Source of the DNA: Candidatus Parcubacteria bacterium
Lineage (GTDB): Bacteria; Patescibacteriota; Patescibacteriia; CAIXNZ01
Assembly: GCA_026395685.1 (NCBI GenBank)
Contig: JAPLYG010000009.1
Span: 81,519 to 145,518, forward strand
DNA: 64,000 bases
Reading direction: 5' to 3'
Made by a program: the position numbers and the translations under genes. This document shows positions 3,936-64,000 of the stretch, one piece after another (the stretch's first letter is position 1; every line of letters starts with the position of its first letter). The notes under the pieces are model-generated. The model saw only the letters and a list, made by a program, of their open reading frames with translations. It was not told the DNA's origin and made no database searches.

Positions 3936-5996
3936 TTAAAATTTAACTTCAAAAACCTTATCGCCATCCAGAACAATTTCATTATTATAATTGGTGTTAA
4001 ACCACTCATTTTCCGGCTCTGCAGGCACTGCTGATTTAATATTTTTACCAAATTTTAGGTCCAAAGTCAAATCAGGCAAAACACCCGGCTGCTTCTGAAC
4101 CAGCAGATTATAGGTGTTGGCGCGTATTTGTTCTTTAATCCTGGCAGGCAGCTTATATTCAAAGGTCAAAGTGCCTGTTTCATGCGGTTCAATGGAAATA
4201 AAAGCGCCAAAAAAAGCTTTATTAAATTCACTACCCGCTTCCACCTGGCCAGCCTGGCCCAAAGGATCTTTGATTTTGTCATTTTCCATCGCACCGCTTG
4301 AACTGACCAATTCACTGCCTGAGGGCACATAAACTCTGGTATATGTTCTTAACCTTGTAGACTTCCAGGTAAAATCCGCATTATTCTGATAAACAATTTC
4401 AGCTTTTGCGATTAAATCGCCATTGCGCTGAGCCAAAGAATATTTTATCGTGCGTTTAACAAACTGATCTGTTTTCAAGGCTGCCATATTACTGTCAACG
4501 ACAAATAAGTAGTCGCCTTCAGTCTGTTTAACATCCCCTGCCCAACCGCGAGCTAAAACCATTTTTTGAATTTCAGGATCTTTCACATAAATTAAAATCT
4601 GCTTTTGATTCATGAATTCAAAGGCCACATCCAGCAAATCCGGCACCTGGCTCATGGGCACAGTCATAAGCTTAACTTTAATCTGGTCAGCCAGTTCTTT
4701 GATAATCCCTTTTCTTTGAGAAATCGGAATATCTAATTCCTGATAAAGCTTGCCGACCATTAATTCCAGCTGTTCCTGGTAATTGCTGTCAGTAAAGACC
4801 ATATTGCCGGCAACAACCGGACCTGTTATTTTTAAAAGTCCGCCTAAAATCTCCGGGGTCATGGCAATGACGCCTGATAAATTTTCCTCATAGGGTAAAA
4901 CATCCTTTATTTCCACGCCCTTTTCACCGATAATTTTTTTGCCCTGTTTTTTCAGCTCAATAATCAGCTTATTTTCCTTATCATACATTTCCAGAGATTT
5001 TAAAGCAGTGGTCGGAAAATCAGGCGCCCAATTTATATCGCGCATAGACCAGTCTTTTTGTTCCAAATATTTGGCGATCTGCCAGGGAGTCGGCTCTTTG
5101 AGTATGGCCTGAGTTGAACGGTCAAGGTTATAGATATTATCAGTATCAAAACTGATTAAATCGCCGTCCTTTAACTTTAAAATGCCGTAAGTGCCGATGA
5201 ATCCGCCGGTCGGCCTTAACTCGGAATTATTCTGAAGTAAAAATAAATATGATTTTGTTTCGTCAAAGCCGGCAATTTTGGGAATTATTCGCAATAAAGG
5301 CAAAGCATTGTCAATCATCATTTTTGCTTTTGGCAAATTATCTCTTATGGGCTCGAATTTTTCCCGCAAAGGGCCCACCAGCTTATCTGACGGAATTTCA
5401 GCAATGGCCTTATCCGCCTCATCAATTCGGTCCTGCAGCTCATACAACATATCTTCCGAAGCAACTATTTTTTCTAAAATCTGACGTTTTTGCTGGGCGG
5501 AAAGATTTTCATAAGTGATGGATTCATTTTTCAATGGTGCCGTAATATCCTCAATCAGCAAAACAACCTTTTCACCGCTATCAGTCAAATTTATTCCTGC
5601 GATTAATAATTCATCAACGGCCTTAAATTGAATTTCAAAATACGGCAGATTCTTTATTATTTTAACTTTATCCAATAAACCCCGGGCGTCCGCCAATTTG
5701 CCATGAGCAGTATTAATTAATTTGGCGCCGGATTTAAAATCACGGTTAATAATCACGTGCAAAGACTGCTCCAGATCATCTTTGGCGGATAAAGACAAAT
5801 TATATGCCTGTTTAATATTGTTATAATAGACTAATCCTAAAACGCCCAAACCGATTATTGCCAAAATAATCAACACAATCAAAATCTTAAGGCCAAAAAA
5901 TAAAGCCTTTTTGTATTTTGAATTTTTAGGAGTTTCCTTAATCTGGGTAAAATCAGGAGAATTTAAACCTACTAAATTGTTGTTTGAGTCTGACAT
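3936..5996 (-). CDS. DUF4012-like membrane-anchored protein (686 aa)
   Basis: N-terminal TM anchor (ALFFGLKILIVLIILAIIGLGVLGLVYY) followed by a large extracytoplasmic domain. Its size, architecture and position next to glycosyltransferases resemble the DUF4012 proteins common in CPR cell-envelope clusters. The family assignment is an inference. Confidence 0.5.
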   Translation of the reverse strand: MSDSNNNLVGLNSPDFTQIKETPKNSKYKKALFFGLKILIVLIILAIIGLGVLGLVYYNNIKQAYNLSLSAKDDLEQSLHVIINRDFKSGAKLINTAHGKLADARGLLDKVKIIKNLPYFEIQFKAVDELLIAGINLTDSGEKVVLLIEDITAPLKNESITYENLSAQQKRQILEKIVASEDMLYELQDRIDEADKAIAEIPSDKLVGPLREKFEPIRDNLPKAKMMIDNALPLLRIIPKIAGFDETKSYLFLLQNNSELRPTGGFIGTYGILKLKDGDLISFDTDNIYNLDRSTQAILKEPTPWQIAKYLEQKDWSMRDINWAPDFPTTALKSLEMYDKENKLIIELKKQGKKIIGEKGVEIKDVLPYEENLSGVIAMTPEILGGLLKITGPVVAGNMVFTDSNYQEQLELMVGKLYQELDIPISQRKGIIKELADQIKVKLMTVPMSQVPDLLDVAFEFMNQKQILIYVKDPEIQKMVLARGWAGDVKQTEGDYLFVVDSNMAALKTDQFVKRTIKYSLAQRNGDLIAKAEIVYQNNADFTWKSTRLRTYTRVYVPSGSELVSSSGAMENDKIKDPLGQAGQVEAGSEFNKAFFGAFISIEPHETGTLTFEYKLPARIKEQIRANTYNLLVQKQPGVLPDLTLDLKFGKNIKSAVPAEPENEWFNTNYNNEIVLDGDKVFEVKF

Positions 5997-6882: not shown

Positions 6883-7911
6883 TTAATTAAACCATTTTCT
6901 CATTTCATCGTCTTTGATCAGCCGGCGCGACATAATCAGCTGATGCTTGATTTTCATACGTTTAAATTTTTTAAAAATTTCCTGCCAAGCCCTGAGAGTT
7001 GAAAATTCAAAAATTAATATATATAAAAATTTCTTAAGTTCATAAAATACAATGTAAATTCCATAGCGCCAGAAATTGCGAGGGCTTAAATTTTTCAGCA
7101 AAATAAAAATATGATTTTTATAGGAATGAAATTTAATAAATTTCGATTTATTTTTTCTCTGCTTAATCACATAAAGGTTGCCGCCCTGGTCAAGATTTTT
7201 TACGCCGCGCTCATGAAAAGCAATTGCTTCAGGCAAATAATAGCTTTTCCAGCCCCGCCACTGCAAACGATAAGCCAGGTCAATATCTTCCTTATAGCTG
7301 AAAAAATCATTATCAAAAAACTCATCTTCAAAGCGCACATCTTCCAAAGCTTTCCGGCAATAAAGAGGACAACTGGCGCAAGGTCCGAAAATTTCAGTAA
7401 CATTTTCCGATGAGGCATTATCATTCTCACCCGCCAGACGGTCAACTACCTTATGGCTTTTAAAAATTTTTATTCCTAATGAGTCAATAATATCAGATTT
7501 AAGGCTTTTTTCCCAGCCCTCATTCTGGTCAAATTGCCAGCGCAGAATCTTGCCGGAAATTGAACCGGCATTATGATGATCTTCTAAAAACCTTACTGCT
7601 TTTTCTAAAAAATTAGGCTCTAAAATGACATCCTGGTTTAAAACTAAAACATAATCAGAATCAGTCCATAAAATCGCCTGATTATGTGCAAAGGCAAATC
7701 CTAAATTATTCTTATTTTTTACCAATTTAATCTTCTGGCTAAAAGCCGGCAAAAACTGCTCTTCTATGATTTTAACTGTCTGATCAACTGAACCATTATC
7801 AATTATCAATAATAAATAATCGGAAAAGGTTTGTTTCAAAATAGCATTCAGACAGTTTTCAATAAATTTTTCGCCGTTCCAGGTGACTAAATTGATAGCG
7901 ACTTTAGGCAT
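6883..7911 (-). CDS. Family 2 glycosyltransferase (rhamnosyltransferase-like)
   Basis: VAINLVTWNGEKFIENCLNAILKQTFSDYLLLIIDNGSVDQT...NLGFAFAHNQA...VLNQD is the GT2 fold signature. Confidence 0.85.
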   Translation of the reverse strand: MPKVAINLVTWNGEKFIENCLNAILKQTFSDYLLLIIDNGSVDQTVKIIEEQFLPAFSQKIKLVKNKNNLGFAFAHNQAILWTDSDYVLVLNQDVILEPNFLEKAVRFLEDHHNAGSISGKILRWQFDQNEGWEKSLKSDIIDSLGIKIFKSHKVVDRLAGENDNASSENVTEIFGPCASCPLYCRKALEDVRFEDEFFDNDFFSYKEDIDLAYRLQWRGWKSYYLPEAIAFHERGVKNLDQGGNLYVIKQRKNKSKFIKFHSYKNHIFILLKNLSPRNFWRYGIYIVFYELKKFLYILIFEFSTLRAWQEIFKKFKRMKIKHQLIMSRRLIKDDEMRKWFN

Positions 7912-17162: not shown

Positions 17163-19598
17163 TTATTTTCTGATCTGCGCGCCGAATTTCGCTTCCAAAT
17201 GCTGTAAAACTTTCTGATGAATAATCTGAACTTCATCCATGGTTAAAGTTTTGTCATCAGAACGGTATTCAATTCTGAATGCAATTGATTTCTTAGCTTC
17301 AGGAATGCCCTGGCCTTCATATACATCAAAGAAAGTAATTTTGCGGATTAAATCCTTGTCCACATCTTTAACCGCCTGATAAATTTCCTCCCAGAGAATT
17401 TTTTTGGCTATAATCATGGAAATATCCAAATCAATGCTCGGGAATTTGGGAATCGGCTTGTATTTGATCACGTCCGTATATAATGATGCTAATTTAGTTA
17501 AATTAAATTCAAAAATTGAGACCTTGGATTTCAAACCCAGCTTATCATACAAATTATCAGCGGGTTCGGAAATATAACCAATGTCTTTAGCCTGAACTAA
17601 AATTTTTATTGCCCGATTCATTTTGGCAAAAGGTAACACATCAACAATTTTCTCCAGTTTATAATCAAAATGCAATTGGCTTAATAAACCGGCAATGACA
17701 TTTTTCGCAATATAAAACGGCTTATCATTTTTCTTTTCGCAAATAATGCCGGCAATTAATTTTTCCTGCAAGGGTAAGCTTTTATCTCCTTTATCAAAGA
17801 CTTTTTCGCCTTTGGCTTCCGGCCAGAAAATCGAACCAACTTCGAATAAACCGAAATCATCATAATTGCGACAGTTGCTGACTGCATTGCCTAACAAATT
17901 AGGAATTAACGAACGGCGCAATAGATTCCAGTCTTTGGACTGCGGGTTGGCAATGTGGATATGATCTTCTACTTTTAAACCCAAACTTTTCACCTGGTCC
18001 TCGCCCACAAAAGAATAATTATAAACTTCGTTTAAACCAAAACCATAAGCCAGAAGCTGTTTGATTTTTCGTTCCAAATCACGTTCAATATTGGCTTCGG
18101 GCTTAGAGATCTCGATCATGGGCAAGCTTGATTTCAAATTGCTATAGCCATAAATCCTAATTACTTCTTCAACTAAATCCTCAGGGATGGAAATATCCTT
18201 CGTGGCGCGCCAGGTTGGTATAGTCACGGTCAAATCCTTAACGCTTTTTTTAACCTCAAAACCCAAACTTGATAAAATCTTCACGACCTTATCTTTGGGA
18301 ATTTCCTGACCGACCTTCTTAGTTATGAAATCAAAACTTAGTTTGATCGGCCCCTGATTTAATTTAAATTTCTTAACATCTTCAATTTTGGAGACTAATT
18401 TTGCCTGAGGACAAAGCTGCAAGATCAATTCAATGGCGCGCTTAATCCCCCACTCGGACAAATTAGGATCCAAAGATTTTTCAAAACGGATTGAAGCTTC
18501 AGAACGTAAACCTAATTTAGATTCTGTCTGACGAATAGAAACATGGTCAAAATTTGCTGATTCAATAATGACTTTTTTGGTTTTATTATCAATTTCAGTA
18601 TTAGCTCCGCCCATAATGCCGGCAATGGCCACTGGTTTAACCGCATCAGCAATTACCAGCATACTTTCATCCAATTCCCTGGCTTGATCATCCAGAGTAT
18701 CTATTTTTTCACCTTTTTTCGCATTACGAACGACAATGCGGTGTTCTGCCAACTTATCATAATCAAAAGCATGAAGAGGCTGGCCGATTTCCATCATCAC
18801 ATAATTGGTAATATCAACAATATTATTAATAGAGCGCATACCCACGCTAGCTACTCGCTTTTTCAGCCAGTCTGGTGATTCTTCAATCTTAATGCCTTCC
18901 AAAACTACTCCGCAATATCGCGGGCATAATTTAAAATCCTCAATTTTAATATCCAACCGACTGTCACCCTGAGGCTCTCGAAGGGTGACTTTGAAATCCT
19001 TTAATTTTTCGCCTATCAAAACGGACACTTCCCGGGCAATGCCATAATGAGACCATAAATCGGGTCGATTACTTAATGATTTATTATCAATTTCATAAAT
19101 CGTATCATCCAAACCTAAAACTTTACTCAAAGGCTCGCCTACTTTAGTTTTACTGTCCAAAATTAAAATTCCAGTGTGATCTTTACCCAAACCAAGCTCA
19201 TCTTCAGCGCACAGCATACCGCTGGATTCCTCACCGCGCACTTTAGCTTTGCTAATTTCCATGCCATTGGGTAATTTGGTTCCGATTGTTGCGACCGGAA
19301 CTTTTTGACCCACAGCGATATTTGGCGCACCACAGACAATATTCAATTTTCCTTCGTTCGCCGAAGCTTTATGCGAAGGCGAATCAATATTAACCACACA
19401 TAACTGCAACTTATCAGCATTAGGATGTTTTTTAACTTCTAAAATTTCGCCGACAATCACGCCATTCAAACTTTGCGCCTGGTCAGTCATACCTTCCACT
19501 TCAGCCGTGGATATAGTCAATTTAAAACCCAGCTCTTTGGAAGATAAAGAGTTTGGTATTTTTACAAAATCGGAAAGCCAATTTTTTGAGATATACAT
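17163..19598 (-). CDS. pheT: Phenylalanine--tRNA ligase beta subunit
   Basis: 811 aa. It has the N-terminal tRNA-binding/OB region, B3/4 and B5 domains and the C-terminal FDX-ACB domain (…GIMGGANTEIDNKT…). It carries a 27-bp palindromic insert at 18963-18989. Confidence 0.95.
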   Translation of the reverse strand: MYISKNWLSDFVKIPNSLSSKELGFKLTISTAEVEGMTDQAQSLNGVIVGEILEVKKHPNADKLQLCVVNIDSPSHKASANEGKLNIVCGAPNIAVGQKVPVATIGTKLPNGMEISKAKVRGEESSGMLCAEDELGLGKDHTGILILDSKTKVGEPLSKVLGLDDTIYEIDNKSLSNRPDLWSHYGIAREVSVLIGEKLKDFKVTLREPQGDSRLDIKIEDFKLCPRYCGVVLEGIKIEESPDWLKKRVASVGMRSINNIVDITNYVMMEIGQPLHAFDYDKLAEHRIVVRNAKKGEKIDTLDDQARELDESMLVIADAVKPVAIAGIMGGANTEIDNKTKKVIIESANFDHVSIRQTESKLGLRSEASIRFEKSLDPNLSEWGIKRAIELILQLCPQAKLVSKIEDVKKFKLNQGPIKLSFDFITKKVGQEIPKDKVVKILSSLGFEVKKSVKDLTVTIPTWRATKDISIPEDLVEEVIRIYGYSNLKSSLPMIEISKPEANIERDLERKIKQLLAYGFGLNEVYNYSFVGEDQVKSLGLKVEDHIHIANPQSKDWNLLRRSLIPNLLGNAVSNCRNYDDFGLFEVGSIFWPEAKGEKVFDKGDKSLPLQEKLIAGIICEKKNDKPFYIAKNVIAGLLSQLHFDYKLEKIVDVLPFAKMNRAIKILVQAKDIGYISEPADNLYDKLGLKSKVSIFEFNLTKLASLYTDVIKYKPIPKFPSIDLDISMIIAKKILWEEIYQAVKDVDKDLIRKITFFDVYEGQGIPEAKKSIAFRIEYRSDDKTLTMDEVQIIHQKVLQHLEAKFGAQIRK
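18963..18989. repeat. 27-bp GC-rich palindromic element (copy 1), in frame inside pheT
   Basis: gtcaccctgaggctctcgaagggtgac is a perfect inverted repeat and encodes VTLREPQGD. A copy differing at only one base is present in murI at 23465-23491. Confidence 0.8.
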
Positions 19599-19609
19599 AT
19601 TGATTTTTA

Positions 19610-20230
19610 TTAATTTTCGCGATAATCGATTTGGAATATTGATTGGTCATTTAGTTCATAATTGCGGAGGGAACTGTATTTGTATTCGCTAAGATCTTTA
19701 ACTATACCGTGTTTATATGGGTTTTTGTGAATGTAATCTAACTTCTCCTGAAATTTTTTGTCAGAATAGACATTAAAATCGTAAAATTTTGATTGCCAAA
19801 GACGATATTGCAAATTTCTTTTGTGCGGTGTCTGGTCTCTCGGGATTGCGCGCAGCATCTGCTCTGTTAACCCCATCCCCCTTCGGGTGGAGCGGAGCAT
19901 CGGCTCTGCGCCTGGGTCAGCTTGAGACAAGAGCAGATGCTCTTGTCTTCCCGAACTTGCGTATAAATCAATAATTCTGCGCGCAGCGGCTCCTTTAATC
20001 CCCTGCATAATTTTTGAAATGGTCAATTTTTCATCCTCAAAATAAATCAAACAATGCACATGATCGGGTAAAATTACATAACCATAAATTTTCAAACCAT
20101 ATTTCTGACGATAAAAATCAAATTCCTCCAATAAAATTTTACAGCAATCTTCATCCTTAAATATCGGCCGTCTTATATTCGTCACAAACGTCACGAAATG
20201 AATATCACCCGGTTGATTAATCCTAATCAT
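19610..20230 (-). CDS. Y1 (HUH) transposase family protein, IS200/RAYT-like
   Basis: HUH motif in LPDHVHCLI. The C-terminal WQSKFYDFNVYSD...YIHKNPYKHGIV...YKYSS matches the IS200-like/RAYT catalytic-Tyr region. A GC-rich in-frame insert lies at about 19825-19965. The gene sits between pheS and pheT. Confidence 0.75.
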   Translation of the reverse strand: MIRINQPGDIHFVTFVTNIRRPIFKDEDCCKILLEEFDFYRQKYGLKIYGYVILPDHVHCLIYFEDEKLTISKIMQGIKGAAARRIIDLYASSGRQEHLLLSQADPGAEPMLRSTRRGMGLTEQMLRAIPRDQTPHKRNLQYRLWQSKFYDFNVYSDKKFQEKLDYIHKNPYKHGIVKDLSEYKYSSLRNYELNDQSIFQIDYREN

Positions 20231-20239
20231 TCTAATTGT

Positions 20240-21280
20240 TTAAAATTGGTTAAGAAATCTGAGATCCCCACTCTGCAATAACCTAATATCGTCAATATTA
20301 TACTTAAGCATCACCAACCTGGTTAAACCAAACCCAAAAGCAAAACCCTGGTATTTATCGGGATCAACATTGCCGGCTTTCAGGACATTGGGGTGGACCA
20401 TGCCGGCGCCGACAATTTCCAGCCAGCCGCTATTTTTGCATAATTTACAGCCTTTGCCGTGACACAAAAAGCAAGTTACTTCTCCGTTGACGCCCGGCTC
20501 CACAAAAGGATAATATTTGGGACGCAATCGTATTTTAGTGTCTTCGCCGTATAACTTTTGAGCCACGGTTTCCAAAAACCCGCACATATCAGTGAAAGAA
20601 ATATTTTTATCAATCATTAGGCCTTCCAGCTGATAAAATGTATGCTCGTGGCGCACGTCAGTAGCTTCATTGCGAAAACAACGGCCCGGAATCACTACTC
20701 GCAAAGGCGCGCCGTGTTTTTGCATGGCTCGAACCTGCACAGAGGAAGTCTGAGTCCTCATCACTAAATTTTCCGTTCCGTTCACAGTCTTGGGATCAAT
20801 ATAAAAAGTATCCTGCATATCGCGCGCCGGGTGCCAGGTCGGAATATTTAAACCTTCAAAATTATAATAATCAGATTCCAATTCAGGACCGTCTAATACC
20901 ATAAAGCCCATTGACTTAAAAATATCTTCCAATTCCGTTTGTACCTGAGTTACGGGATGCAAATGACCAAGCTTGTATTTCTCAATTTCCAAAGTAACAT
21001 CAATAAAATCACGCTCTAAATCCTCATCAATATCTAAATTCAAATCTTGTTTTTTTTGCTCCAAAGCTTTGCTAATTTCATTTTTGATCTCATTGGCCAC
21101 TGCACCAATTTTAGGACGCAAATCATCAGATACTTCTTTAATATCCTTCAAAAGCTTGGCCAGTTCCCCACTTTTGCGGGAAAAATACTTATTCTCAATA
21201 TTCTGCCATTCTTCTGAATTGCGGATATTCTCAATTTCCTTAAGCGCCTGCTCTTTTAAATCTTTTAATTTAATTTCCAT
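20240..21280 (-). CDS. pheS: Phenylalanine--tRNA ligase alpha subunit
   Basis: Class II aaRS motifs (…FRNEATDVRHEHTFYQLEGL…, GAGMVHPNVL, GFAFGFGLTRL). Length is 346 aa. Confidence 0.95.
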   Translation of the reverse strand: MEIKLKDLKEQALKEIENIRNSEEWQNIENKYFSRKSGELAKLLKDIKEVSDDLRPKIGAVANEIKNEISKALEQKKQDLNLDIDEDLERDFIDVTLEIEKYKLGHLHPVTQVQTELEDIFKSMGFMVLDGPELESDYYNFEGLNIPTWHPARDMQDTFYIDPKTVNGTENLVMRTQTSSVQVRAMQKHGAPLRVVIPGRCFRNEATDVRHEHTFYQLEGLMIDKNISFTDMCGFLETVAQKLYGEDTKIRLRPKYYPFVEPGVNGEVTCFLCHGKGCKLCKNSGWLEIVGAGMVHPNVLKAGNVDPDKYQGFAFGFGLTRLVMLKYNIDDIRLLQSGDLRFLNQF

Positions 21281-23362: not shown

Positions 23363-24235
23363 CTACTTCAGCTCAATCTTTTCAAACTTAATTCCGCTAC
23401 CAAACCACTCCTCCCCCAACTTCTGGTAATGCGGCGACAAATCAGTCACCTGAAACTTAATATTGTCACCCTGAGGTTCTCGAAGGGTGACATCGTCGGC
23501 GTCATGCTTCGAGATCCTCAGCATGACATTCTCGTTTTTATCCAATTTTGTTTCAATCTCCGGATGCCGTGTCAAATAATCAGCCAAAGAATCAGCCACA
23601 ATTTCACCTGAATGCAAAACTTTTGTTCTTGAACTCATAATCCCCTGAATTTCCTTAAACAGAATCGGATAATGCGTACAGCCTAAAATCAAAGTATCAA
23701 CTTTTGCCAGTTTCAACGGCTGTAAATAAACTCGCAAAATCCTCTTGGCCACATCTGTTTTTTGCCAGCCTTCTTCCACCAAAGGCACCAAAAGCGGACA
23801 CGCCTGCTGTAAAACTTCCAGCTTATTATTAATTTTTCCTATTTCGATTTCATAAGCTTTGGAATTAACAGTACCTTTGGTGCCAATAACACCGATTTTC
23901 TTTTTGGCTACTTTCACTGCTTCTTCAACTACCGGCCTGATCACGCCTAATACTCGCCTATCAGCAAAATGCTGAGGCAACCAGTTTTGCTGTATCTTAG
24001 GCAAAGCTTCAGCTGACGCAGTATTACAGGCAATAATTACCAACTGGCAATCCTGCTTAAATAAAAAATCAACTGCCTGTTCCGTAAAATTATAGATTAC
24101 CTCCCGGGAGCGGTTGCCATATGGCGTCCGCGCATTGTCTCCCAGGTAAATGTAATCGTATTGAGGCAGTTTTTTGATGATTTCTTTAAGAATAATTAAG
24201 CCTCCGAGTCCGGAGTCAAAAATTCCGATCTTCAT
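23363..24235 (-). CDS. murI: Glutamate racemase
   Basis: MKIGIFDSGLGGL...IACNTAS...LGCTHYP motifs. The start is taken at MKIGIF; the ORF track starts 8 codons upstream. The C-terminus is extended and contains the in-frame palindromic element (…DVTLREPQGDNIKF…). Confidence 0.85.
   Translation of the reverse strand: MKIGIFDSGLGGLIILKEIIKKLPQYDYIYLGDNARTPYGNRSREVIYNFTEQAVDFLFKQDCQLVIIACNTASAEALPKIQQNWLPQHFADRRVLGVIRPVVEEAVKVAKKKIGVIGTKGTVNSKAYEIEIGKINNKLEVLQQACPLLVPLVEEGWQKTDVAKRILRVYLQPLKLAKVDTLILGCTHYPILFKEIQGIMSSRTKVLHSGEIVADSLADYLTRHPEIETKLDKNENVMLRISKHDADDVTLREPQGDNIKFQVTDLSPHYQKLGEEWFGSGIKFEKIELK
23465..23491. repeat. 27-bp GC-rich palindromic element (copy 2), in frame inside the murI 3' region
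   Basis: gtcaccctgaggttctcgaagggtgac differs from the pheT copy at one base and encodes the same VTLREPQGD. Confidence 0.8.
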
Positions 24236-24244
24236 AATATTCAA

Positions 24245-24332
24245 GGCGAAAACGCCCAATTTCGGACTGACAGGCTTTAGCCTGTTATATTAACACACTG
24301 AAGTGTGTCAGTCCGTTCCTTAGCGTTTTCGC
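24245..24332 (-). ncRNA. Nested multi-stem structured element immediately upstream of the murI start (candidate regulatory leader or REP-like element)
   Basis: The outer stem is ggcgaaaacgcc/ggcgttttcgc. An inner stem (ggactgaca/tgtcagtcc) encloses two hairpins (caggctttagcctg and acacactgaagtgtgt). On the murI mRNA strand the structure ends 9 nt before the AUG. Confidence 0.3.
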
Positions 24333-34289: not shown

Positions 34290-37200
34290 TTATCTAAAAG
34301 TTAAATTGCCTATTAAGTATTCTCCCGTATAACCCCGGTTTTCCTGTCCATTAGACGCTCCCCAGCTGTATATATAGGTTCTCAAAGTTCTAGCGCAACA
34401 TGGGCTTAGGAAATCTGTATCCCTTACATCTGCGACAACTAATATATTTAACGGAGAGCCAACAGTTAATCCGTTATTTGCCGTTAAGTTAATATAGGAA
34501 AAATCACTGCCTCCGTAAGTAACATTAGGGAAATATCCGGTACCCATTAAATTTTCAGGAGCCACTGAATCTTTATAAATTTTAACCTCTACAGTATTGT
34601 CTCCGATTTGACCAGGCTCACTGCCAATTAATGTACCGTTTAACTTTAAAGCTAACTGCGTTAAAACAGTATTTTGATTACAATCGGCAACTATTTGCGC
34701 GGCAGTCCTACCGATGATAATAGAGGAGCTATCTTTGGATCTAATTAGACGGTTCCCCGTTTCACTGATAGCGGGATTAAGTGTTACTGCTGTTGCTGTT
34801 CGAGAACATTGGCATTGCCCTGATACTGTATTCATTCCATAGCCTGGCGCGCATAAAAAGTTGCATGTGCCCATACTTAAATTATAATTTTTTACATATA
34901 CAGGCTGCCATTTCGTGCCGGACCAGGCTTGAGTATAAGAACTTTCGCCGTTCCATTGCTGACCGGTATTCAAAGCGCCGCAGGAGATTGTCCTGGTCAG
35001 AGCCTCACACTTTTTTGCAGAGGCATTGTACTCATAGTTCATCTTGCATTTAAAATTGCAGGAGCCCGCGGTTGTAGCATTATAATTTTTTACATATACA
35101 GGCAGCCATTCCGAACCGTTCCAGGTTTGTGTGTATGAGCTGTCGCCATTCCATTCCTCACCGTCATATAAATCCCCGCAGGAAGCTCCCTGGGTCTGGG
35201 AGCATTTATGCGTACTCACATCACTGCATTCTCTGCATATTTGCCCCATTGAATCTATTGATGTTTCCGCGCACTTTTTTGATTGGCAGATGCTCTGGGT
35301 GATTGTTCTGGTATATTCCCTCATGTTTCCTTCCGGGTCTAATTTACAGATTAACTGATCTCCTATCGGCCTGCAGTCCGCATTGCTCTTGCAGTCATTC
35401 AGCCACACCGCCCTGCCAAGTTCGCATATGCCCAAATCAGGCGCTGTCTTGTTTATTATTTTATCAGATTTCGTTGCTATGCCCAGCAAAAGTCCGACAT
35501 GATCCCTGAAAAAGTCACAATTATTCTCATCTAAGCATTTACTTTGGATGAGTTCGGATCTTAGGGGTGTATCCGCCTTGTATGCGGTTTGGAGTGATAT
35601 CATGAGCCTTATGATTTGGCCGATATTAGCTTTATTAAGGAGTGATGATCCTAAAGCGCCTTCCGTAAGTATGTTGCCAATGCAAGAATCTGTCTGATCC
35701 ATTTTTCCGCACCCGTCCACTGCCATATTTAATGTTCCCCGGTGATTACTTACAGCTCCTCCGTCAGAATCTGTCGGAACATTCACCGTAAGGGGGTCAT
35801 TTTCCAAAATGCCTGCCGCTACTACCTGATATTCTCTGCCGTCATTGCCTGTGAGTTTTAAATCAGCGCTTTGGTAGCATATTGCCGGGCATCCGCACAG
35901 ACCTCCAGGTACACCGTCGCAGTTAGAATCCCCGCACTTAAGGTCGCCCTGACTAAAATAAGGATAACCATTATTAATAGAATCACGAATATCCCAAATA
36001 TTTTCATTGGCGTTGTCATCGTACGGATTAGAAACAAAATCCCAAGGCGTTGTCAGGCCAGCTGTCGCAAGAGAAGTGAATGTTTCTATACTTTTCATCT
36101 CCGCAGTTGTCTTGCCCGTGGTGCCGGAAGGGCATATGTCCCTTGATATGCCGGATATTTCAGTGTCCCAGAAGCTATTTTGGCAACTTTCAGGTAGGCC
36201 ACCAGCTACGACTCCCGCTACATTAAACCAATCAGGAGTGGCTTCTATTTTTCCGGCGACATAGGAATTGGAAATTAAACCGAAATTCATTCCTGCTAAA
36301 CCTCCTATCGTAGGAGTCAAGGATGTTGACTTAACAAAAACTCTGGAGTAAGAATTTGAAATTTGTCCCTCATATTGATTTTCTCCCAATAATCCACCGC
36401 AATATTGATTACAATTAACATCCCCTGTCGCATAAGAATTTGATATATCAGCATCATTTTTGCCTACTATTCCCCCCGCATATGTGTCACCTGTAATATC
36501 TACATCTTCCAAGCCGACATTTTTTATAATAACCCTTCCGCCTAATCCGTAAGCGGATGTCTTACCAAATAAACCAATGGGCTTTTTAAAATTAGAATCC
36601 GGCCTGTTTACATATAATCCTTTGATAATATGATTTTGTCCGTCAAATGTTCCTGAAAACGGCGTTCCTTCGGTTCCAATCGGTTCAAACCCCGCGCCGT
36701 TGTTCCAATTTACTGTATCAGAACAGTCAATATCATTGGTTAATACATAATTATTATGGATGGGGAAATTATTAATGGCTTGCAATTCCTCGCAGTCAGA
36801 TATTGATATGGTTTGTGGAGTAATTGATTTTGATTTCATTACAACAATCGCGCCAAATTCCATACCGCAGCTGCCATAATCAATTTTTAAATAACCGTTA
36901 TCATGACTACCAGCATCTGCGCCCCAACTGTTCTTTAATATCCAATAGCCTTTTTCGTCATTATACCCTACTAGGACTACAGCATGGTTTGCCATGGGGG
37001 GATCAAATGAACATCTAAATATGCCATTAGAATCAAAAGTGCCGTTAAGATCCCAAGAAAAAGTTACGCTAAGAGGCCCGTAGTTAATAAGATATTGTTT
37101 AATAATTGCAGAATCAGGAGGCAAAGATAACCACTGATTTATTTTTACTACCCTGCTTTGCCAGTTAGCGCAACGGTCACTACAAGTAGCATCACTGCAT

Positions 37201-38372
37201 GAATTATTAGCTCTATAATTGCAAGTGGTGCTGTCAGGCTTACATGAATTGCCGCACATGCACCCAGATCCATCTATATAAGGCATGCAAGCTTCATCAG
37301 GTATCCCGAAGTCCTTAATAAATGTCAGAGCACCCCCAGACCATCCTCCGCAACAATTTCCGGCATTAGAACAATCAGAAACCAGATATTCTTCTGAAAG
37401 ATCCAAATCAAGGTCAGGATTATTGGCATCAATATTGGCAACTGCCTCCGTAGCACCCACAGTTCCAAATGCCCAGCAACTGCCACAACTCCCCTGATTT
37501 TTTACAGAAGTCATCCAATTGGCACCATTGTAATCTCTCCAGTCAAAGGATGTGGGAAGTGATCCTGAATCGCCTAAAGTGGTCATTTCCACAGTTTGTG
37601 CTTGTGCGGTGTGAGATAACAAAGCAGCCTGTATCTGCTTATCTATAGATTCTGTTTGCATAGACACTGATGGTTCTGTTTTAGATATATTGTTTACCTC
37701 CCCGCACGGTCCGCAATAGCCTCCCTGGTCAAGAAGAGCTTTGACTGCTTCTTCAGCGACACACAAAGTTTTTTCAGCGGCACTTCCAGGCTTGCTGCAG
37801 ACAAACGCCTTGCCTTTGCCGCAAGGAAATTTGCTGCAAGTCTTGTCCAAATTGCAGCTGGTCGCGGACTTTTTATATAAATCCATTAAATCAACGACTG
37901 ATCCGACTTCCTGACCTTTTTTATCCACGCAAACCGCGTATTCCCGGGAAAAAGGATTTTTGCCGTCAGTTTTTATTTTCAAGTCATAGCCTTTTTGGGC
38001 GCAGTATGAATGCTCTTTGCCGCAATATCCCTGGAGAAATTTCCATTCCTCGCATTCCACTTTGTCCGGAAAAATACAGACGCCATATTGGCCATTTTCA
38101 TTTTCCCTGATTTCATAGGAATAACCCAGTTCTTTGCAATGGACTGCCGCGGGATTGGCAAAGCCCCTGCCGATTCCATCAGCAGGAATTTCAGCAGGTT
38201 GAGTTGCGACCGGTTGAGGCTTGGTTGCGGTTTCAACTGTCTTTTTAGGCTTTTGCATTGCCGGAATAATAGCAAAAGCCAAAGCGCTTACTCCGAGCAA
38301 AACAGCTGTCGCAATTGCCAGCTGAATATCAATGCTTGATGTTGTTTTGGTATAAGTTTTCATAGAGATCAA
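34290..38372 (-). CDS. Giant secreted papain-like cysteine peptidase (C1A) with DUF333 domain(s) and Cys-rich repeats (1360 aa)
   Basis: Signal/TM at the N-terminus. DUF333: GFANPAAVHCKELGYSYEIRENENGQYGVCIFPDKVECEEWKFLQGYCG. C1 catalytic Cys box: NQGSCGSCWAFGTVGATEA. His/Asn region: ANHAVVLVGYNDEKGYWILKNSWG. Two tandem ~70-aa Cys/Trp repeats lie near the C-terminus. Confidence 0.8.
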   Translation of the reverse strand: MISMKTYTKTTSSIDIQLAIATAVLLGVSALAFAIIPAMQKPKKTVETATKPQPVATQPAEIPADGIGRGFANPAAVHCKELGYSYEIRENENGQYGVCIFPDKVECEEWKFLQGYCGKEHSYCAQKGYDLKIKTDGKNPFSREYAVCVDKKGQEVGSVVDLMDLYKKSATSCNLDKTCSKFPCGKGKAFVCSKPGSAAEKTLCVAEEAVKALLDQGGYCGPCGEVNNISKTEPSVSMQTESIDKQIQAALLSHTAQAQTVEMTTLGDSGSLPTSFDWRDYNGANWMTSVKNQGSCGSCWAFGTVGATEAVANIDANNPDLDLDLSEEYLVSDCSNAGNCCGGWSGGALTFIKDFGIPDEACMPYIDGSGCMCGNSCKPDSTTCNYRANNSCSDATCSDRCANWQSRVVKINQWLSLPPDSAIIKQYLINYGPLSVTFSWDLNGTFDSNGIFRCSFDPPMANHAVVLVGYNDEKGYWILKNSWGADAGSHDNGYLKIDYGSCGMEFGAIVVMKSKSITPQTISISDCEELQAINNFPIHNNYVLTNDIDCSDTVNWNNGAGFEPIGTEGTPFSGTFDGQNHIIKGLYVNRPDSNFKKPIGLFGKTSAYGLGGRVIIKNVGLEDVDITGDTYAGGIVGKNDADISNSYATGDVNCNQYCGGLLGENQYEGQISNSYSRVFVKSTSLTPTIGGLAGMNFGLISNSYVAGKIEATPDWFNVAGVVAGGLPESCQNSFWDTEISGISRDICPSGTTGKTTAEMKSIETFTSLATAGLTTPWDFVSNPYDDNANENIWDIRDSINNGYPYFSQGDLKCGDSNCDGVPGGLCGCPAICYQSADLKLTGNDGREYQVVAAGILENDPLTVNVPTDSDGGAVSNHRGTLNMAVDGCGKMDQTDSCIGNILTEGALGSSLLNKANIGQIIRLMISLQTAYKADTPLRSELIQSKCLDENNCDFFRDHVGLLLGIATKSDKIINKTAPDLGICELGRAVWLNDCKSNADCRPIGDQLICKLDPEGNMREYTRTITQSICQSKKCAETSIDSMGQICRECSDVSTHKCSQTQGASCGDLYDGEEWNGDSSYTQTWNGSEWLPVYVKNYNATTAGSCNFKCKMNYEYNASAKKCEALTRTISCGALNTGQQWNGESSYTQAWSGTKWQPVYVKNYNLSMGTCNFLCAPGYGMNTVSGQCQCSRTATAVTLNPAISETGNRLIRSKDSSSIIIGRTAAQIVADCNQNTVLTQLALKLNGTLIGSEPGQIGDNTVEVKIYKDSVAPENLMGTGYFPNVTYGGSDFSYINLTANNGLTVGSPLNILVVADVRDTDFLSPCCARTLRTYIYSWGASNGQENRGYTGEYLIGNLTFR

Positions 38373-38438: not shown

Positions 38439-38476
38439 ACGGGGCTCCGCTCCGAAGCTTCGGTGCGGAGCCCCGT
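38439..38476. repeat. 38-nt near-perfect GC-rich palindrome (REP-like hairpin) in the intergenic region
   Basis: acggggctccgcTccgaagcttcggTgcggagccccgt has only two central mismatches. It shares the GCGGAGC/GCTCCGC core with the hairpins at 25561-25597 and 19880-19900. Confidence 0.6.
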
Positions 38477-38711
38477 TCCCACCACTATATTAAAAAAATC
38501 CCTTTATTTCGACGGAATAACACCCAATCAACAATTATCAATCATCAAACAATAACTAAATTATAATACCGAATCATATAAACAAATTAGAATTTAGCAT
38601 TTTGATATTTGAATTTGTTTGATGATTGTAGTTTGATTATTGATTATTTAAAAAATAAAATTACACAACCTCATACAACTTCATAAAACATCATATAACC
38701 TCATACAACTT

Positions 38712-41603: not shown

Positions 41604-41858
41604 TTATTTAATTTGTGTGTACTCCATTGCCCGCCAGGGGCGGGCAGGCTGCCTTTGGCGGAAACTACGAGGACCTACTAAGTTGAAAATTCAAAGTGCA
41701 AAGTTTAAAGTTACAGTTAGTAGTTTAAATTTTTGGAATATATTTTTATTTTACGATACCCAATTAGCGTAACGAATATCCAGACCGAATAACGAAAAAC
41801 TATTTTAAAAGGGAGACAAAAATATCTCCCTCTCAAGTATAGAATATTTCTAAAAATT

Positions 41859-48565: not shown

Positions 48566-51500
48566 CTAAGTTTTTTCCAAAGACTTTACATTAGAGGCAA
48601 TATCAGTCAAAGAGCGCCTGACTCTGTCCTTGTCCTGTATCGCCAGCGGATTAGTCTGGATCTCCCGGACTAAATTGGTCATGGAATCTCGCAGTTTATT
48701 AGCCACTGACTGGTCAAATCTCGCACCCAAGCTTTCCTCCATCTTTTTGAGTCCGCTATCAAGATTTTCCTGCATTCTTTTCACTCCCCTCAAAAGCAAA
48801 TCATTGGTAGCAGCACCATCAACGGCCGTAGTACCGGCCTTTATAAAATTATTATAATAATTAGAAACATTTACTGTCGTGGTAGTAGAACTAGGTGCTG
48901 CCTCCGGTCTTGGAGCTGGAGCAGGAGCTGGAGCTGGCGCAGGTGCTGGTTCAGCAGTTCCTGCTGGCGCAGGTGCTGCGGGTTTTGGCTTAGGTGCTGG
49001 AGGAGGAGTTCCTGCTGGCGGAGGAGTCCCTGCTGGCGGTGGTGTAACTGGTGGCTCTTCCTCTTCCTCAGGTTCCTCTTCAGCTGATATATCTACATCT
49101 TTATCTCCTCTTTTTCTGGGAATAGCAAACTTATAGAAGCCAATACCTTGGGCTCGGCTCAAAATACCATACATTTGTCCGCGCTGTCCCTTTAGGTCTT
49201 TACCCTTCAACTCTTCTAATTCTCCAATTAATTCCTCAAGCTTATCAATCTCCATAAATTCAGGAGAATAACCGGCAGTTTCAACTTCTTCCCTGATAGA
49301 ATATGCCAACGCCTCTAACCCTGCCTGAGCACTGGTAATTTTATCAGGAGTAGCTTGACCACTATTAACCTTGGCCAAAAGTCTTTTCAATCTGTCAGAA
49401 ACTTTGCTTTCAGAAGTATTCTTAATCTCACGCTGGTTAATGACATCTCCGCCATGCTCAACATAATCCGCATTGATTTCATCAAAATTTTCTATCTGTC
49501 CGACTTCTGTTGTAGCCATTTTCTTCATACTGCGGGAAACTATTTCTTGTGCCTGTTGCGGAGGTACACCTTTAACTGATTCTAATAAATCCGGCATTTC
49601 TTTTTCCATTTTACTAATAACTTCAGCTGCATTTCGTTCTTGCGGAGTAACTGCTTTGCCCTCACGCATCTTATCCTTAATGCCTCTATAATCATAAAGC
49701 GAGTATTCTTCGCCTTTAATCTTAAATTTCTTTCTTTGTCCGCTTTGATTAAAGAAGATAACTTCAGCCATTTCCTTGCTGGTTTCTCCAGTGACAATAT
49801 CATGGCCAGTACCCTGGACATATTTACCGCCACTAGTCTTATAGCCTTCCTGCAAAGCCTGCATATTTTCCGTGGAATACAACTCTTTATGCATCAAATC
49901 CATCTGCTCTACTTTGCCTTTAATAAACTTATCTCTTGCCTCACCGGTTAAACCTTTTTTGCCTGCTTCTTCTTCAGCATATTTCCTTCTGCCTGCTTCA
50001 TCCTTAGAAGCTGTAATATAGTGCAGCTGCATATCTTCTTCCTTATCCTTAATGAATTTCTTTTTTTCTTCCGGAGTAGTTATTCTGCCTTCTTTTTCCT
50101 CTTTATCTGCTAAATCTGCTACGAGCTTCTTCCTCTCAGCGTCTGTTCCTGTTATCACTTTAATCAGATCACCGGTTGCTTTCTTGCCATTTTTCAGACC
50201 CTGTTCGCCAGACTGCTTCATGCGACCGGCATTTTTTGACAGACCCATCCACAACGCCATTTTTTGCGCAATATTTCCTTCAGCCAGACTTCCTGCCTGC
50301 TTATTATTCATCGCCTTAGTTACCTTTGAAGTATCAGCTGCAGCCGCACTCTTCATCGTGTCTTTAGCTTTTTGGATTTCACCTGCCGTACCAGCCTGCA
50401 CCAGTTGAAATTCATTGGTTTCAGGATTTCTGACTACAGCTGAAACAGATATGCGGTAACCGGTTTTTTCCTCATGTTTATCCTCCCATTTTTTTGATAA
50501 TGCTTCCATATTGGCAACACCTCCTTTAGCTGATTTTTCCAGATCAATTACTTTCTTGCCGGTGGTTTCATCTGTTTTTGTTTTAATACCATAATGTTCA
50601 AAAACACCCAAGTCTAAAGCTTTCTGCATATCATTATCATCAATTAAACCCTGCTCACCTTTGAGATTTAAAAGCGCCAGAAAACGATCGCCGGTAGCAG
50701 TTTTCATCCGCTCGTTAAGTATTTTCGGATCTTTATCTGAACCAACCAGGCGTTCTTGTTTTTCATAATTCTCAATTTCTTTTTGTCTTTGTTCCACCAA
50801 AGCGCCCGGCTTGCCGCCGATCCATTTTTCTACTTGGGCAGTCGAACGCTCTCCCAGAGTTTCACGTCCTTTTTTGGTGGCTACCAGACGAATACCTTTG
50901 GAAATAGCGCCAGAGATGCCACCGCCACGTTCTACTCTTTCTAATCCTTCCTTAGCTGTTAAGCCGGCATATTGTCCGACTTTTCCGGCTGACCATTTGG
51001 CTGTGCGCTCCATTCTGCCCAAAGTCGCATCCTGGATCTTGCCTGCTGCTTTGCCTGCATAGCTGGCGCCCAAAACTTTCATTTCAGAAGTAAATTTCAA
51101 ACCGGCGACCAGCATAATAATGCCCAGCATGTACTTGATAACATAATCCAGACGCCCGGCTTTGGAATTCGCCACTGCATCATCCAGATTTGCCTGTCCC
51201 AGTCCGCCTTCACTGACCTTGGCCAGTTCCGTGGCATACATTACCGTATAATTATTGTTCAGTGTCAGAATTGAAATCCATAAAAAGAAAGCTAAAAGCG
51301 GCCCAACCAGGCAGTATTCTATAAAACTGTTTAACCAACGGCTGCCATAACCTCCGATTCTGCCGCTGACTCCGGTAAAAGCCATAGAAGCAAAGGCAAG
51401 CGGTGAAAAAACAACCAAAACCCAAAGGACAATTATTCTAAAAATTAAAATAATCAGAAAGATCGCGACCACAATCAAGGCGACGACCACATACATGAGC

Positions 51501-61996: not shown

Positions 61997-62112
61997 AAAA
62001 TTGAATTTAAAATTCAAAATGCAAAGTGCAAAATTACAAATCAAAAATTAAAATTTTGGTATTCTTTTATTTTAATAAAACATTCCAGAATTTTAAACTA
62101 ACAACTGCAACT

Positions 62113-62457: not shown

Positions 62458-62634
62458 ACTTAAAAAATTAATTGCTTAGTTATACGTTTATCGGTTTCCT
62501 GCCTTCGCCCGTATGAGACGGGCTACGGCAGACAAGCGTTTTTCGTTACGTCAATAGTTTAACGAAAAACGTAACGATCATCGATACCGAATAACGATAA
62601 ACCGATTTTATTTTCTAATTATTTTTGCCATCAA

Positions 62635-63240
62635 TTATATTTCATCAATTAATCCGGGATACTTTGTATAAATATATTGATAATTTGCCGCATCAAAAAT
62701 GTTATGCTTTGCGGGATTATTATAAAGATATCGCATATGTTGATTAAAATCATCATAATTGCGAATATAATGATCGTGAAGTGATTTTTGCCAATGAAAT
62801 TTTACATACAAAGTTTGATTTAATCCATATTTTGCCACAAATTGACGGCGCGTTGTAATCAAATATTCATAATGCTTTTCGATTATCTCTTCATAAATTT
62901 TATATTCCTCCCCCAATTGAAGGAGCGATTTGCAAATCGCTCCTTCGTCGACATAACCTAAGATAAAATTTATATTCCTGGTATAGTGTCTTTTGATAAA
63001 TTGCATTATTTTCGATAAATCCATCGCTTCATACGGCAAAAACATTAAATGAAAATGATCCAATAATATTACAAACGAATATAAATCAAATTTGTGCCTT
63101 TTTTTCGCCAATTTTAAAATTTCAATAAACAACTCGCAAAAAATCGACTCCTTAAAATATTCAACCCGGTTATCGGCAACACCTGTCACAAAATAAGTCG
63201 CCCCTTCAAAATATATCCGTTTTTGCGCTCCTTTATGCAT
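62635..63240 (-). CDS. Y1 (HUH) transposase family protein, IS200/RAYT-like (second copy)
   Basis: HUH motif in LLDHFHLMF. The C-terminal WQKSLHDHYIRNYDDFNQHMRYLYNNPAKHNI...YQYI is conserved with the 19610-20230 protein. A perfect 28-bp palindrome lies at 62919-62946 in frame. Confidence 0.75.
   Translation of the reverse strand: MHKGAQKRIYFEGATYFVTGVADNRVEYFKESIFCELFIEILKLAKKRHKFDLYSFVILLDHFHLMFLPYEAMDLSKIMQFIKRHYTRNINFILGYVDEGAICKSLLQLGEEYKIYEEIIEKHYEYLITTRRQFVAKYGLNQTLYVKFHWQKSLHDHYIRNYDDFNQHMRYLYNNPAKHNIFDAANYQYIYTKYPGLIDEI
62919..62946. repeat. Perfect 28-bp palindrome inside the second Y1 transposase gene
   Basis: gaaggagcgatttgcaaatcgctccttc equals its own reverse complement and encodes EGAICKSLL in frame. 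Confidence 0.8.
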
Positions 63241-63915: not shown

Positions 63916-64000
63916 AAAAGAGTTTAAAGTTCAAAGTTTAAAATGCAAAGTTACAGTGTAAAATTCAAAATTTTGGAATATATATTATTTAAAAAAACTT

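Follow-up and report, generated by a model that had tools for sequence, protein, structure and literature searches.

How does a GC-rich, hairpin-forming stretch come to lie, in frame, inside a much AT-richer transposase gene? We examined this question in 64,000 nucleotides of a Candidatus Parcubacteria bacterium (assembly GCA_026395685.1, contig JAPLYG010000009.1, positions 81,519 to 145,518), a stretch that we refer to as the window. The gene encodes a predicted tyrosine transposase of the kind linked to repetitive extragenic palindromes (REPs), or RAYT, and the GC-rich segment falls in the loop between helix αC and strand β4 of the protein. With a probability of roughly 0.8, we read this segment as a degenerate REPIN (REP doublet forming a hairpin), made of two to three inverted REP units and carried in frame in the αC-β4 loop.

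The GC-rich segment and the gene that carries it

The features of the locus are given below in window coordinates. A1 is an alignment of 36 homologs of the RAYT, and R1 is a covariance model of the foot-plus-hairpin unit.

19610-20230, minus strand: RAYT (TnpA-REP-like Y1/HUH) gene, 206 amino acids (from the list of open reading frames [ORFs] and the PF01797, NF047646, and 4ER8 matches).
20054-20062, minus strand: codons of the HUH motif, H57-V58-H59 within PDHVHCLI, with 20230 taken as the first position of the ORF; neither H57 nor H59 varies in A1.
19840-19957, minus strand: entire REPIN-like insert, 118 nt, translated SSGRQEHLLLSQADPGAEPMLRSTRRGMGLTEQMLRAIP, with the closing stem UUCGGGA/UCCCGAG (from folding, GC content, translation, and AlphaFold2).
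19924-19952, minus strand: REP unit a, foot GGGAAG plus hairpin ACAAGAGCA-TC-TGCTCTTGT, an inverted repeat (R1, 40.7 bits, E = 5e-9; unit in the training alignment).
19885-19913, plus strand: REP unit b, foot GGGTGG plus hairpin GCGGAGC-ATCG-GCTCTGC, bearing the 12-mer GAGCCGATGCTC (R1, 30.5 bits, E = 4e-6; unit in the training alignment).
19847-19872, plus strand: REP unit c, a degenerate half-unit, GCGCAGCATCTGCTCTG, whose arm pairs 12/12 with unit a (partial R1 match at 19854-19863; 12-mer match).
19793-19798, minus strand: W145-Q146 codons, start of β4 and downstream limit of the variable linker; W145 is invariant in A1, and the pair aligns with W94/Q95 of 4ER8.
19718-19735, minus strand: catalytic-Tyr motif Y166-IHKNP; Y166, H168, N170, and P171 are conserved in A1, and the motif aligns to YIYINP of 4ER8.

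The segment stands apart from the rest of its gene in composition. GC content is 0.54 in the linker (residues 88 to 144) versus 0.32 in the remaining gene; in 100-nt intervals it runs from 0.55 to 0.60 over 19800-19949 and from 0.28 to 0.35 elsewhere in the gene, with a peak of 0.66 in 80-nt intervals (19815-19965). Inverted repeats lie within it. Positions 19854-19865 and 19930-19941 form a 12-nt inverted repeat at 100% identity, 19925-19935 and 19938-19948 form a hairpin with 11-nt arms 2 nt apart, and an imperfect 26-nt inverted repeat joins 19882-19907 to 19930-19955. Moreover, the 12-mer GAGCMGATGCTS occurs three times, each time inside the segment (expected, 0.17; three occurrences reached in 0 of 100 shuffles). 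The sense-strand RNA is predicted to fold at -57 kcal/mol (z = -3.6), a stability that none of 200 shuffles equaled, and the segment folded as DNA gave z = -2.25. A first-pass annotation of this DNA had described a GC-rich segment with paired arms and an uninterrupted reading frame; we recovered all of these, including the peptide that it quoted.

We judged the kinship of the gene by its sequence. The product scored 124.5 bits against the NCBIfam equivalog model for REP-associated transposases (NF047646, REP_Tyr_transpos; cutoff, 80) and 34.2 bits against the IS200 model NF033573, under the cutoff of 55 for that model. The closest solved structure in a family-profile search was Escherichia coli TnpA-REP (4ER8; E = 3.7e-20), which aligned in two blocks separated by 6 residues in the E. 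coli protein versus approximately 57 in the window protein. The motifs DHVH (H57, H59), W145-Q146, and Y166-IHKNP are invariant or nearly so in A1 and also align to 4ER8. Both alignments place the segment between H57/H59 and Y166, where the first-pass annotation had put it. The match to PF01797 (Y1_Tnp; E = 1.9e-13) covers only residues 10 to 92, equivalent to profile positions 7 to 86 of 121, and thus ends where the GC-rich segment starts. Together, these results support classification of the product as a predicted RAYT. We considered and rejected an IS200/IS605 TnpA (subclass 1.1). The Tyr motif reads YIHKNP, not Y[IV]ENQ, the NF033573 score is below the cutoff, and there is no space for transposon ends; the near-identical multicopy pattern of IS200/IS605 is also missing, since the two RAYT copies in the window share only 26% identity.

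The three units of the insert have the feet GAAG (a), GTGG (b), and GATT (c). Among relatives (L numbers denote homologous loci), the unit a foot of L104 is GGGTAG, in which GTAG is still present, and the hairpin core of unit a is identical in L102, L103, and L104.

Other identities for the segment were searched for and discarded. At gathering thresholds, Rfam placed no family at the segment and only two tRNAs in the window; ARAGORN found nothing at the segment, and there was no intrinsic terminator within 19500-20400. A small ribozyme, brought to mind by the three-way-junction look of the fold, was rejected on the basis of no Rfam match and no conserved unpaired core in the aligned units. We also rejected a generic in-frame element like the Rickettsia palindromic elements, with one and the same repeat in many unrelated genes, because the insert is found nowhere else in the window. 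Finally, the first-pass annotation had proposed that a core, gagcggagc, is common to the insert and to intergenic hairpins. This claim found little support. The core has a single other match, at 38444-38452 (expected, 0.22; two occurrences reached in 1 of 100 shuffles), and R1 does not recognize the hairpin there as a REP unit, so we do not take the match as a sign of kinship. That GC-rich intergenic hairpin (38440-38477; ACGGGGCTCCGC...GCGGAGCCCCGT; RNA fold z = -4.8) has a 1360-amino-acid ORF (34290-38372) just downstream, and only a 9-mer is common to the hairpin and the RAYT insert.

Structure, copies, and constraint in homologous genes

The composition and folding of the segment recur among its relatives. 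In a sample of 12 homologous genes from 10 loci, all 12 had a GC-enriched linker (0.37 to 0.55 versus 0.23 to 0.34 in the remaining gene) with long hairpins. Tested against synonymous recodings, the native linker proved the more stable in 13 of 13 family members (z = -1.6 to -5.5). The recurrent architecture is GGGTAGC, one or two hairpins, and then GCTACCC, i.e., a "double foot." Double-foot units were seen in L110, L082, and L089, and an in-frame insert was present in every family 1 homolog whose DNA was examined. As the first-pass annotation had supposed, a hairpin element occupies the same site across the family: each homolog inspected at the DNA level has one in the linker, and position and reading frame (GGT-AGN...NCT-ACC) are kept from Parcubacteria to Chloroflexota. 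The insert varies in length, from 32 to approximately 118 nt, and in its number of units.

Stem pairing is conserved while the sequence of the stem changes. We counted pairs across 21 foot-first units from different genomes, chosen by eye as hairpins. Overall, 98.8% of cells were paired, versus 33 to 42% when partners were slid. Double-sided changes occurred in four of the eight stem pairs, with up to four pair types, and the covariation score was 0.62 versus 0.16 in shuffles (reached by 0 of 500). The foot was almost invariant across the aligned units. Compensatory changes thus preserve the hairpin from one genome to another. The same arms can be read in the protein alignment. The linker peptides that recur in A1 (EHLLL, EQML, SFYA, GIKA, and WEQLLP) are translations of the two palindrome arms and vary jointly with the DNA (EHLLL/EQML, SFYA/GIKA, WEQLLP). 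The linker is a nucleic acid element that is incidentally translated.

Copies of the element also exist outside the gene in other genomes. In L107, the intergenic stretch that separates pheS from the RAYT gene holds a second copy of the 66-nt intragenic unit (97% identity); since the likeness stops at both feet, this copy (L107 4901-4966) is free-standing and not a fragment of a RAYT pseudogene. Copies outside the gene were likewise found in L110 (96 nt, 90% identity) and L109 (62 nt, 90% identity), and L105 has two upstream clusters of the element. The L109 match at 7385-7491, in contrast to the L107 copy, is part of a RAYT pseudogene rather than a free-standing repeat. In the Chloroflexota loci L082 and L002, footed hairpins lie on the flanks of the gene and one lies inside it, and at many Acidobacteriota loci the linker repeat is found on both gene flanks as well. 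R1 detected units inside the gene and within approximately 100 bp outside it in L003, L084, L085, and L086, none of which had been used to train the model. In total, REP-flanked RAYT genes were seen in L107, L109, L105, L110, L082, L002, L003, L084, L085, and L086. The foot-plus-hairpin units of the insert are thus the same as those on the flanks of homologous RAYT genes in other genomes, and we take the element to be the cognate REP/REPIN. Genomes carry their own variants (GAGCATCTGCTC, GAGCCTCTGCTC, GCTTTTATGC, and others), and a genome that has both an intragenic and an extragenic copy has matching sequences at the two sites. The first-pass description of a REP-like palindromic insert is upheld by these flanking copies, by the covarying stem, and by the RAYT model, which both RAYT proteins of the window pass.

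The L109 pseudogene occupies 7237-7688, between the genes for Big_1 and peptidase S8, and is a frame-broken remnant of a second RAYT gene; L105 and L110 have an intact RAYT paralog at this position. Over 107 nt, the REPIN of the remnant shares 96% identity with the one in the intact gene, which lies 2 kb upstream.

When the window gene and its three closest relatives are compared (six pairs), the hairpin cores are identical and the spacers variable. In 6 of 6 pairs, the fraction of identical codons among identical residues was larger for the insert than for each of the two core halves; the pooled counts were 157/198 in the insert compared with 296/455 and 172/279 in the core halves. Such synonymous conservation indicates that the insert is not freely decaying. 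In the window clade, then, the hairpin cores are under nucleotide-level constraint, although the feet have partly decayed.

At the protein level, the insert falls in a permissive place. AlphaFold2, run with the family alignment, placed αC at residues 71 to 93 and β4 at residues 145 to 154, with pLDDT (predicted local distance difference test) above 90 in the core and below 50 for residues 104 to 139. The insert peptide is presumably a disordered loop, as the low model confidence suggests. Across the 36 homologs, the stretch from αC to the WQ strand ranges from 0 to approximately 55 residues. Relatives without this insert exist: P0021, P0027, P0028, and P0030 have no residues in the insert columns of A1. 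P0021 and P0027 to P0030 have a variable stretch directly after the HUH strand (A1 columns 84 to 135), and a β3-αC insert was found only in these proteins. Peptides in that stretch (PNEFG, ANSFA, and ATNEFVAT), seen as protein sequence, resemble translated palindromes. The site is the β3-αC position listed for transposase subclass 2.4 in Table 1 of PMC6006769. On each strand, the L107 REPIN is free of stops in two of its three reading frames, which makes an open in-frame insertion not improbable.

Neighborhood, paralog, and other repeats of the window

The RAYT gene is tightly packed between pheS (20240-21280), 9 bp upstream, and pheT (17163-19598), 11 bp downstream. The order pheS-RAYT-pheT was also found in L103, L107, and L112, with homologs down to 45% identity, and a second syntenic set has the order TPR-RAYT-Big_1-RAYT-S8. 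Together with the lack of room for transposon ends, the pheS-RAYT-pheT synteny fits the vertically inherited, domesticated character of RAYTs (PMC5581495). The gaps of only 9 to 11 bp and the conserved arrangement imply cotranscription with an essential aminoacyl-tRNA synthetase operon. A scan of a genome collection with the RAYT returned mostly distant relatives from Acidobacteriota.

The window encodes a second RAYT, also with a palindrome in its linker:

62635-63240, minus strand: RAYT paralog, 201 amino acids, with DHFH, WQ, and YLYNNP (from the ORF list; NF047646, 86.5 bits versus the cutoff of 80).
62919-62946, no strand assigned: perfect 28-nt palindrome GAAGGAGCGATTTGCAAATCGCTCCTTC in the αC-β4 linker of the paralog, translated EGAICKSLL (from sequence and self-match; kept in L113 and L114).

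The two palindromes differ in sequence and share alignment columns, in agreement with the first-pass annotation. Among homologs of the paralog (alignment A3), the motif E[GE]AIxxSLL is conserved and in some is repeated. The paralog-type stem is retained in L113 with a changed center, and in L114 (44% identity) the arms are fully compensated, GAAGGCGGGATTCG|CGAATCCCGCCTTC, and are accompanied by two tandem half-copies. In the latter locus, which is annotated as Peregrinibacteria, the palindrome and the two 27-nt half-copies (5295-5380) are translated as IRESRLREK three times over. The tandem half-copies point to local amplification of the element inside the ORF. Palindromes of the paralog family have no GTAG foot, and we found no extragenic copy of this type within ±5 kb or elsewhere in the window.

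The window contains several other repeats. Immediately downstream of the paralog is a nested cluster of inverted repeats (approximately 130 nt; 62478-62608), 33 nt of which recur at 85% identity in intergenic DNA beside tRNA-Arg (41768-41800); these two sites may represent a second, foot-less repeat family. AT-rich intergenic repeats of 66 nt and 35 nt (71 to 89% identity), with AAAGT/CAAAGT-like units, lie at several gene boundaries (41681-41746, 62004-62069, and 63921-63986; also 1322, 41495, and 62109). A 27-nt palindrome, GTCACCCTGAGG(C/T)TCTCGAAGGGTGAC, is present at 18963-18989 and 23465-23491 (two copies versus 0 expected). Both copies are within minus-strand ORFs and are translated VTLREPQGD, one in pheT and the other near the C terminus of a 298-amino-acid ORF (23363-24259). 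A net insertion in pheT was rejected: orthologs have eight residues at that position, so the palindrome is a replacement instead. Lastly, the most GC-rich island of the window (48867-49091; 0.68) consists of degenerate tandem GGAGCTGG/GCAGG units and is probably a Gly/Ala-rich coding repeat.

Proposed origin of the insert, rival explanations, and known systems

An in-frame, degenerate REPIN accounts for the segment as follows. RAYT genes would sit amid a local cloud of their own REPs. The element would have entered the gene by the same cutting and rejoining of single strands with which RAYTs are believed to mobilize REPs. It could then have survived because the loop tolerates added residues and two of three frames of the element are stop-free, and reinsertion or gene conversion might keep the internal copy like its extragenic siblings. 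According to the literature consulted, RAYT-driven REP mobility has had no direct demonstration in vivo, so we infer the mechanism of insertion.

Several other observations weigh against this account. Only unit b of the window gene has a foot that matches GT[AG]G. In the 64-kb window, no extragenic copy was detected by BLAST with the segment, by 12-mer or 11-mer matching, by the pattern GGTAG...CTACC, or by R1 with filters off, which gave no further match at E < 1. Nor do GT[AG]G-footed REPs flank the gene to form a REPtron, the gaps to its neighbors being 9 and 11 bp. Accordingly, the association with dispersed REPs that defines RAYTs is not borne out for this genome within the window. Taken alone, the window gene folds only moderately better than its synonymous shuffles (z = -2.7 and -1.6). 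The choice of units by eye biases the covariation count toward pairing, a bias that is eased, not removed, by the slid-partner control and by independent R1 hits. Finally, the higher synonymous conservation of the insert could reflect recent homogenization instead of selection.

Could the internal copy have a function in cis? It might be a recognition hairpin, in DNA or mRNA, through which the gene regulates itself, or a sheltered master copy that reseeds or homogenizes the extragenic copies. Conserved position and frame from Parcubacteria to Chloroflexota are in keeping with such a role, as are the stronger conservation of synonymous sites in the insert relative to the catalytic core, copies that match inside and outside the gene within a genome and differ between genomes, and the detection of no copy other than the intragenic one in the 64-kb window. 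The paralog family, too, keeps another palindrome at the same site, with compensatory changes and with no extragenic copies within ±5 kb. However, relatives without an insert at the site exist, length and unit number vary freely (32 to approximately 118 nt), the feet are decaying in the window clade, and repeated local insertion with gene conversion would also explain all of the supporting observations. We therefore regard a cis-acting function as unlikely. We think it similarly unlikely that, as the sheltered-copy version would have it, a repeat in a tolerated loop of a selected ORF escapes loss and is inherited with the enzyme, so that the last or only copy here is held by nucleotide-level selection. 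A functional cis role is nevertheless the most interesting reading that remains.

Two further explanations fare worse. The added residues might be an adaptation of the protein, such as a DNA-contacting arm near the REP-recognition surface, with the hairpins incidental. The short αC-β4 insertions that PMC6006769 reports for subclasses 2.2 and 2.6 are near the REP-recognition region, and the peptides EHLLL and EQML recur across homologs. Yet these peptides translate the two arms of a single palindrome and change with the DNA, structure exceeds that of synonymous recodings, near-identical noncoding copies exist outside genes, pLDDT is below 50 across the insert, and its length ranges from 0 to approximately 55 residues; on this evidence, a protein-level adaptation is very improbable. 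Alternatively, the hairpin might serve in the mRNA as a signal for processing or attenuation and so tune expression between pheS and pheT. The gene does lie 9 bp and 11 bp from these two, in an order repeated in L103, L107, and L112. But the element is also found in homologs beside TPR/Big_1/S8, pyruvate kinase, and phosphoribosyl pyrophosphate synthase genes, no terminator-like site was found, and identical copies occur in intergenic DNA elsewhere, which leaves an operon signal with hardly any probability. We thus retain an in-frame REPIN as the explanation of the segment.

No case of a transposase persisting together with its miniature repeat through vertical inheritance is better studied than that of RAYTs and REPINs. 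Compensatory change, matching of inside and outside copies, and, in one clade, an internal copy that is constrained with no external copy in view provide a testable handle on whether such internal copies have a function. There is a practical side as well. Inserts of this kind interrupt matches to Pfam domains and give rise to GC islands, and annotation pipelines could misinterpret them.

Among HUH enzymes, some initiators have the nick site in their own gene. The origin of pT181 lies in repC and that of φX174 in gene A, and both are proven replication origins, of a plasmid and a phage, respectively. As in those systems, the gene of an HUH enzyme here contains a hairpin of the kind that its product would recognize. 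The window gene differs in being chromosomal and syntenic.

Small palindromic repeats are also tolerated in frame in coding sequences, presumably in loops, as Di Nocera et al. 2013 (PMC3733652) document for REPs and Rickettsia palindromic elements in unrelated genes. Those host genes are housekeeping genes unrelated to a transposase, whereas the element described here was found in no other gene of the window. A different palindrome does occur in pheT and in a second ORF of the window.

REPINs as described consist of two inverted REPs that form a longer hairpin, and they are extragenic, with tens to hundreds of copies; RAYTs are typically present in about one copy per genome and are mostly inherited vertically (Bertels & Rainey 2011, PMC3116915; Bertels et al. 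2017, PMC5581495). The locus resembles that system in having inverted REPs with an associated RAYT and a pheS-RAYT-pheT synteny that fits vertical descent. In contrast, the copy here is within the RAYT ORF, and what can be seen of the population is very small and stays close to the gene. E. coli TnpA-REP has a substrate made up of a GTAG foot and an imperfect palindrome (4ER8; Messing et al. 2012, PMC3479197). The HUH, W-Q, and Y-x-x-x-N-P motifs of the window protein all align with this structure. However, E. coli TnpA-REP has approximately 6 residues where the window protein has approximately 57, and E. coli REPs are extragenic.

The closest precedent is subclass 2.4 of the TnpA-REP proteins (equivalent to Bertels RAYT group 4), for which in-frame REPs within tnpA-REP genes have been published (Quentin, Siguier, Chandler & Fichant 2018, BMC Genomics, PMC6006769). 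The kind of feature seen here is thus already known, and the first-pass view that a transposase family with its own REP-like palindromes is out of the ordinary needs correction, since there is a precedent. The consulted portions of that study define the double-foot REP (5' GT[AG]G ... C[TC]AC 3') and give, in Table 1, the subclass signature NH[IFV]H, WQ, and YIxNNP with a variable insertion at β3-αC. The window gene and its homologs share with the subclass in-frame REPs, long and double-foot REPs (the latter in L110, L082, and L089), a peripheral variable region, and a length near the approximately 194 amino acids given there. WQ is present in the window protein; its YIHKNP has K for N, and the YLYNNP of the paralog is nearer to the signature. 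In contrast, the HUH signature is DHVH in the window protein and DHFH in the paralog rather than NH[IFV]H, the insertion is at αC-β4 rather than the tabulated β3-αC, Parcubacteria (candidate phyla radiation [CPR]) are not among the phyla that those portions name for subclass 2.4, and the window gene is without an extragenic REP in 64 kb. On the mismatches of HUH signature and insertion site, we rejected a firm assignment to the subclass as set out in those portions. The window gene is filed as a RAYT with an in-frame REPIN and is not assigned to subclass 2.4. What is new here is the Parcubacteria host and the αC-β4 site, in a window with no external copies. In-frame REP insertion in RAYT genes thereby extends, at the αC-β4 loop, to Parcubacteria (CPR) and to relatives from Chloroflexota and Acidobacteriota, and the covariation, the synonymous-site constraint, and the within-genome matching of inside and outside copies go beyond what the consulted portions of PMC6006769 describe.

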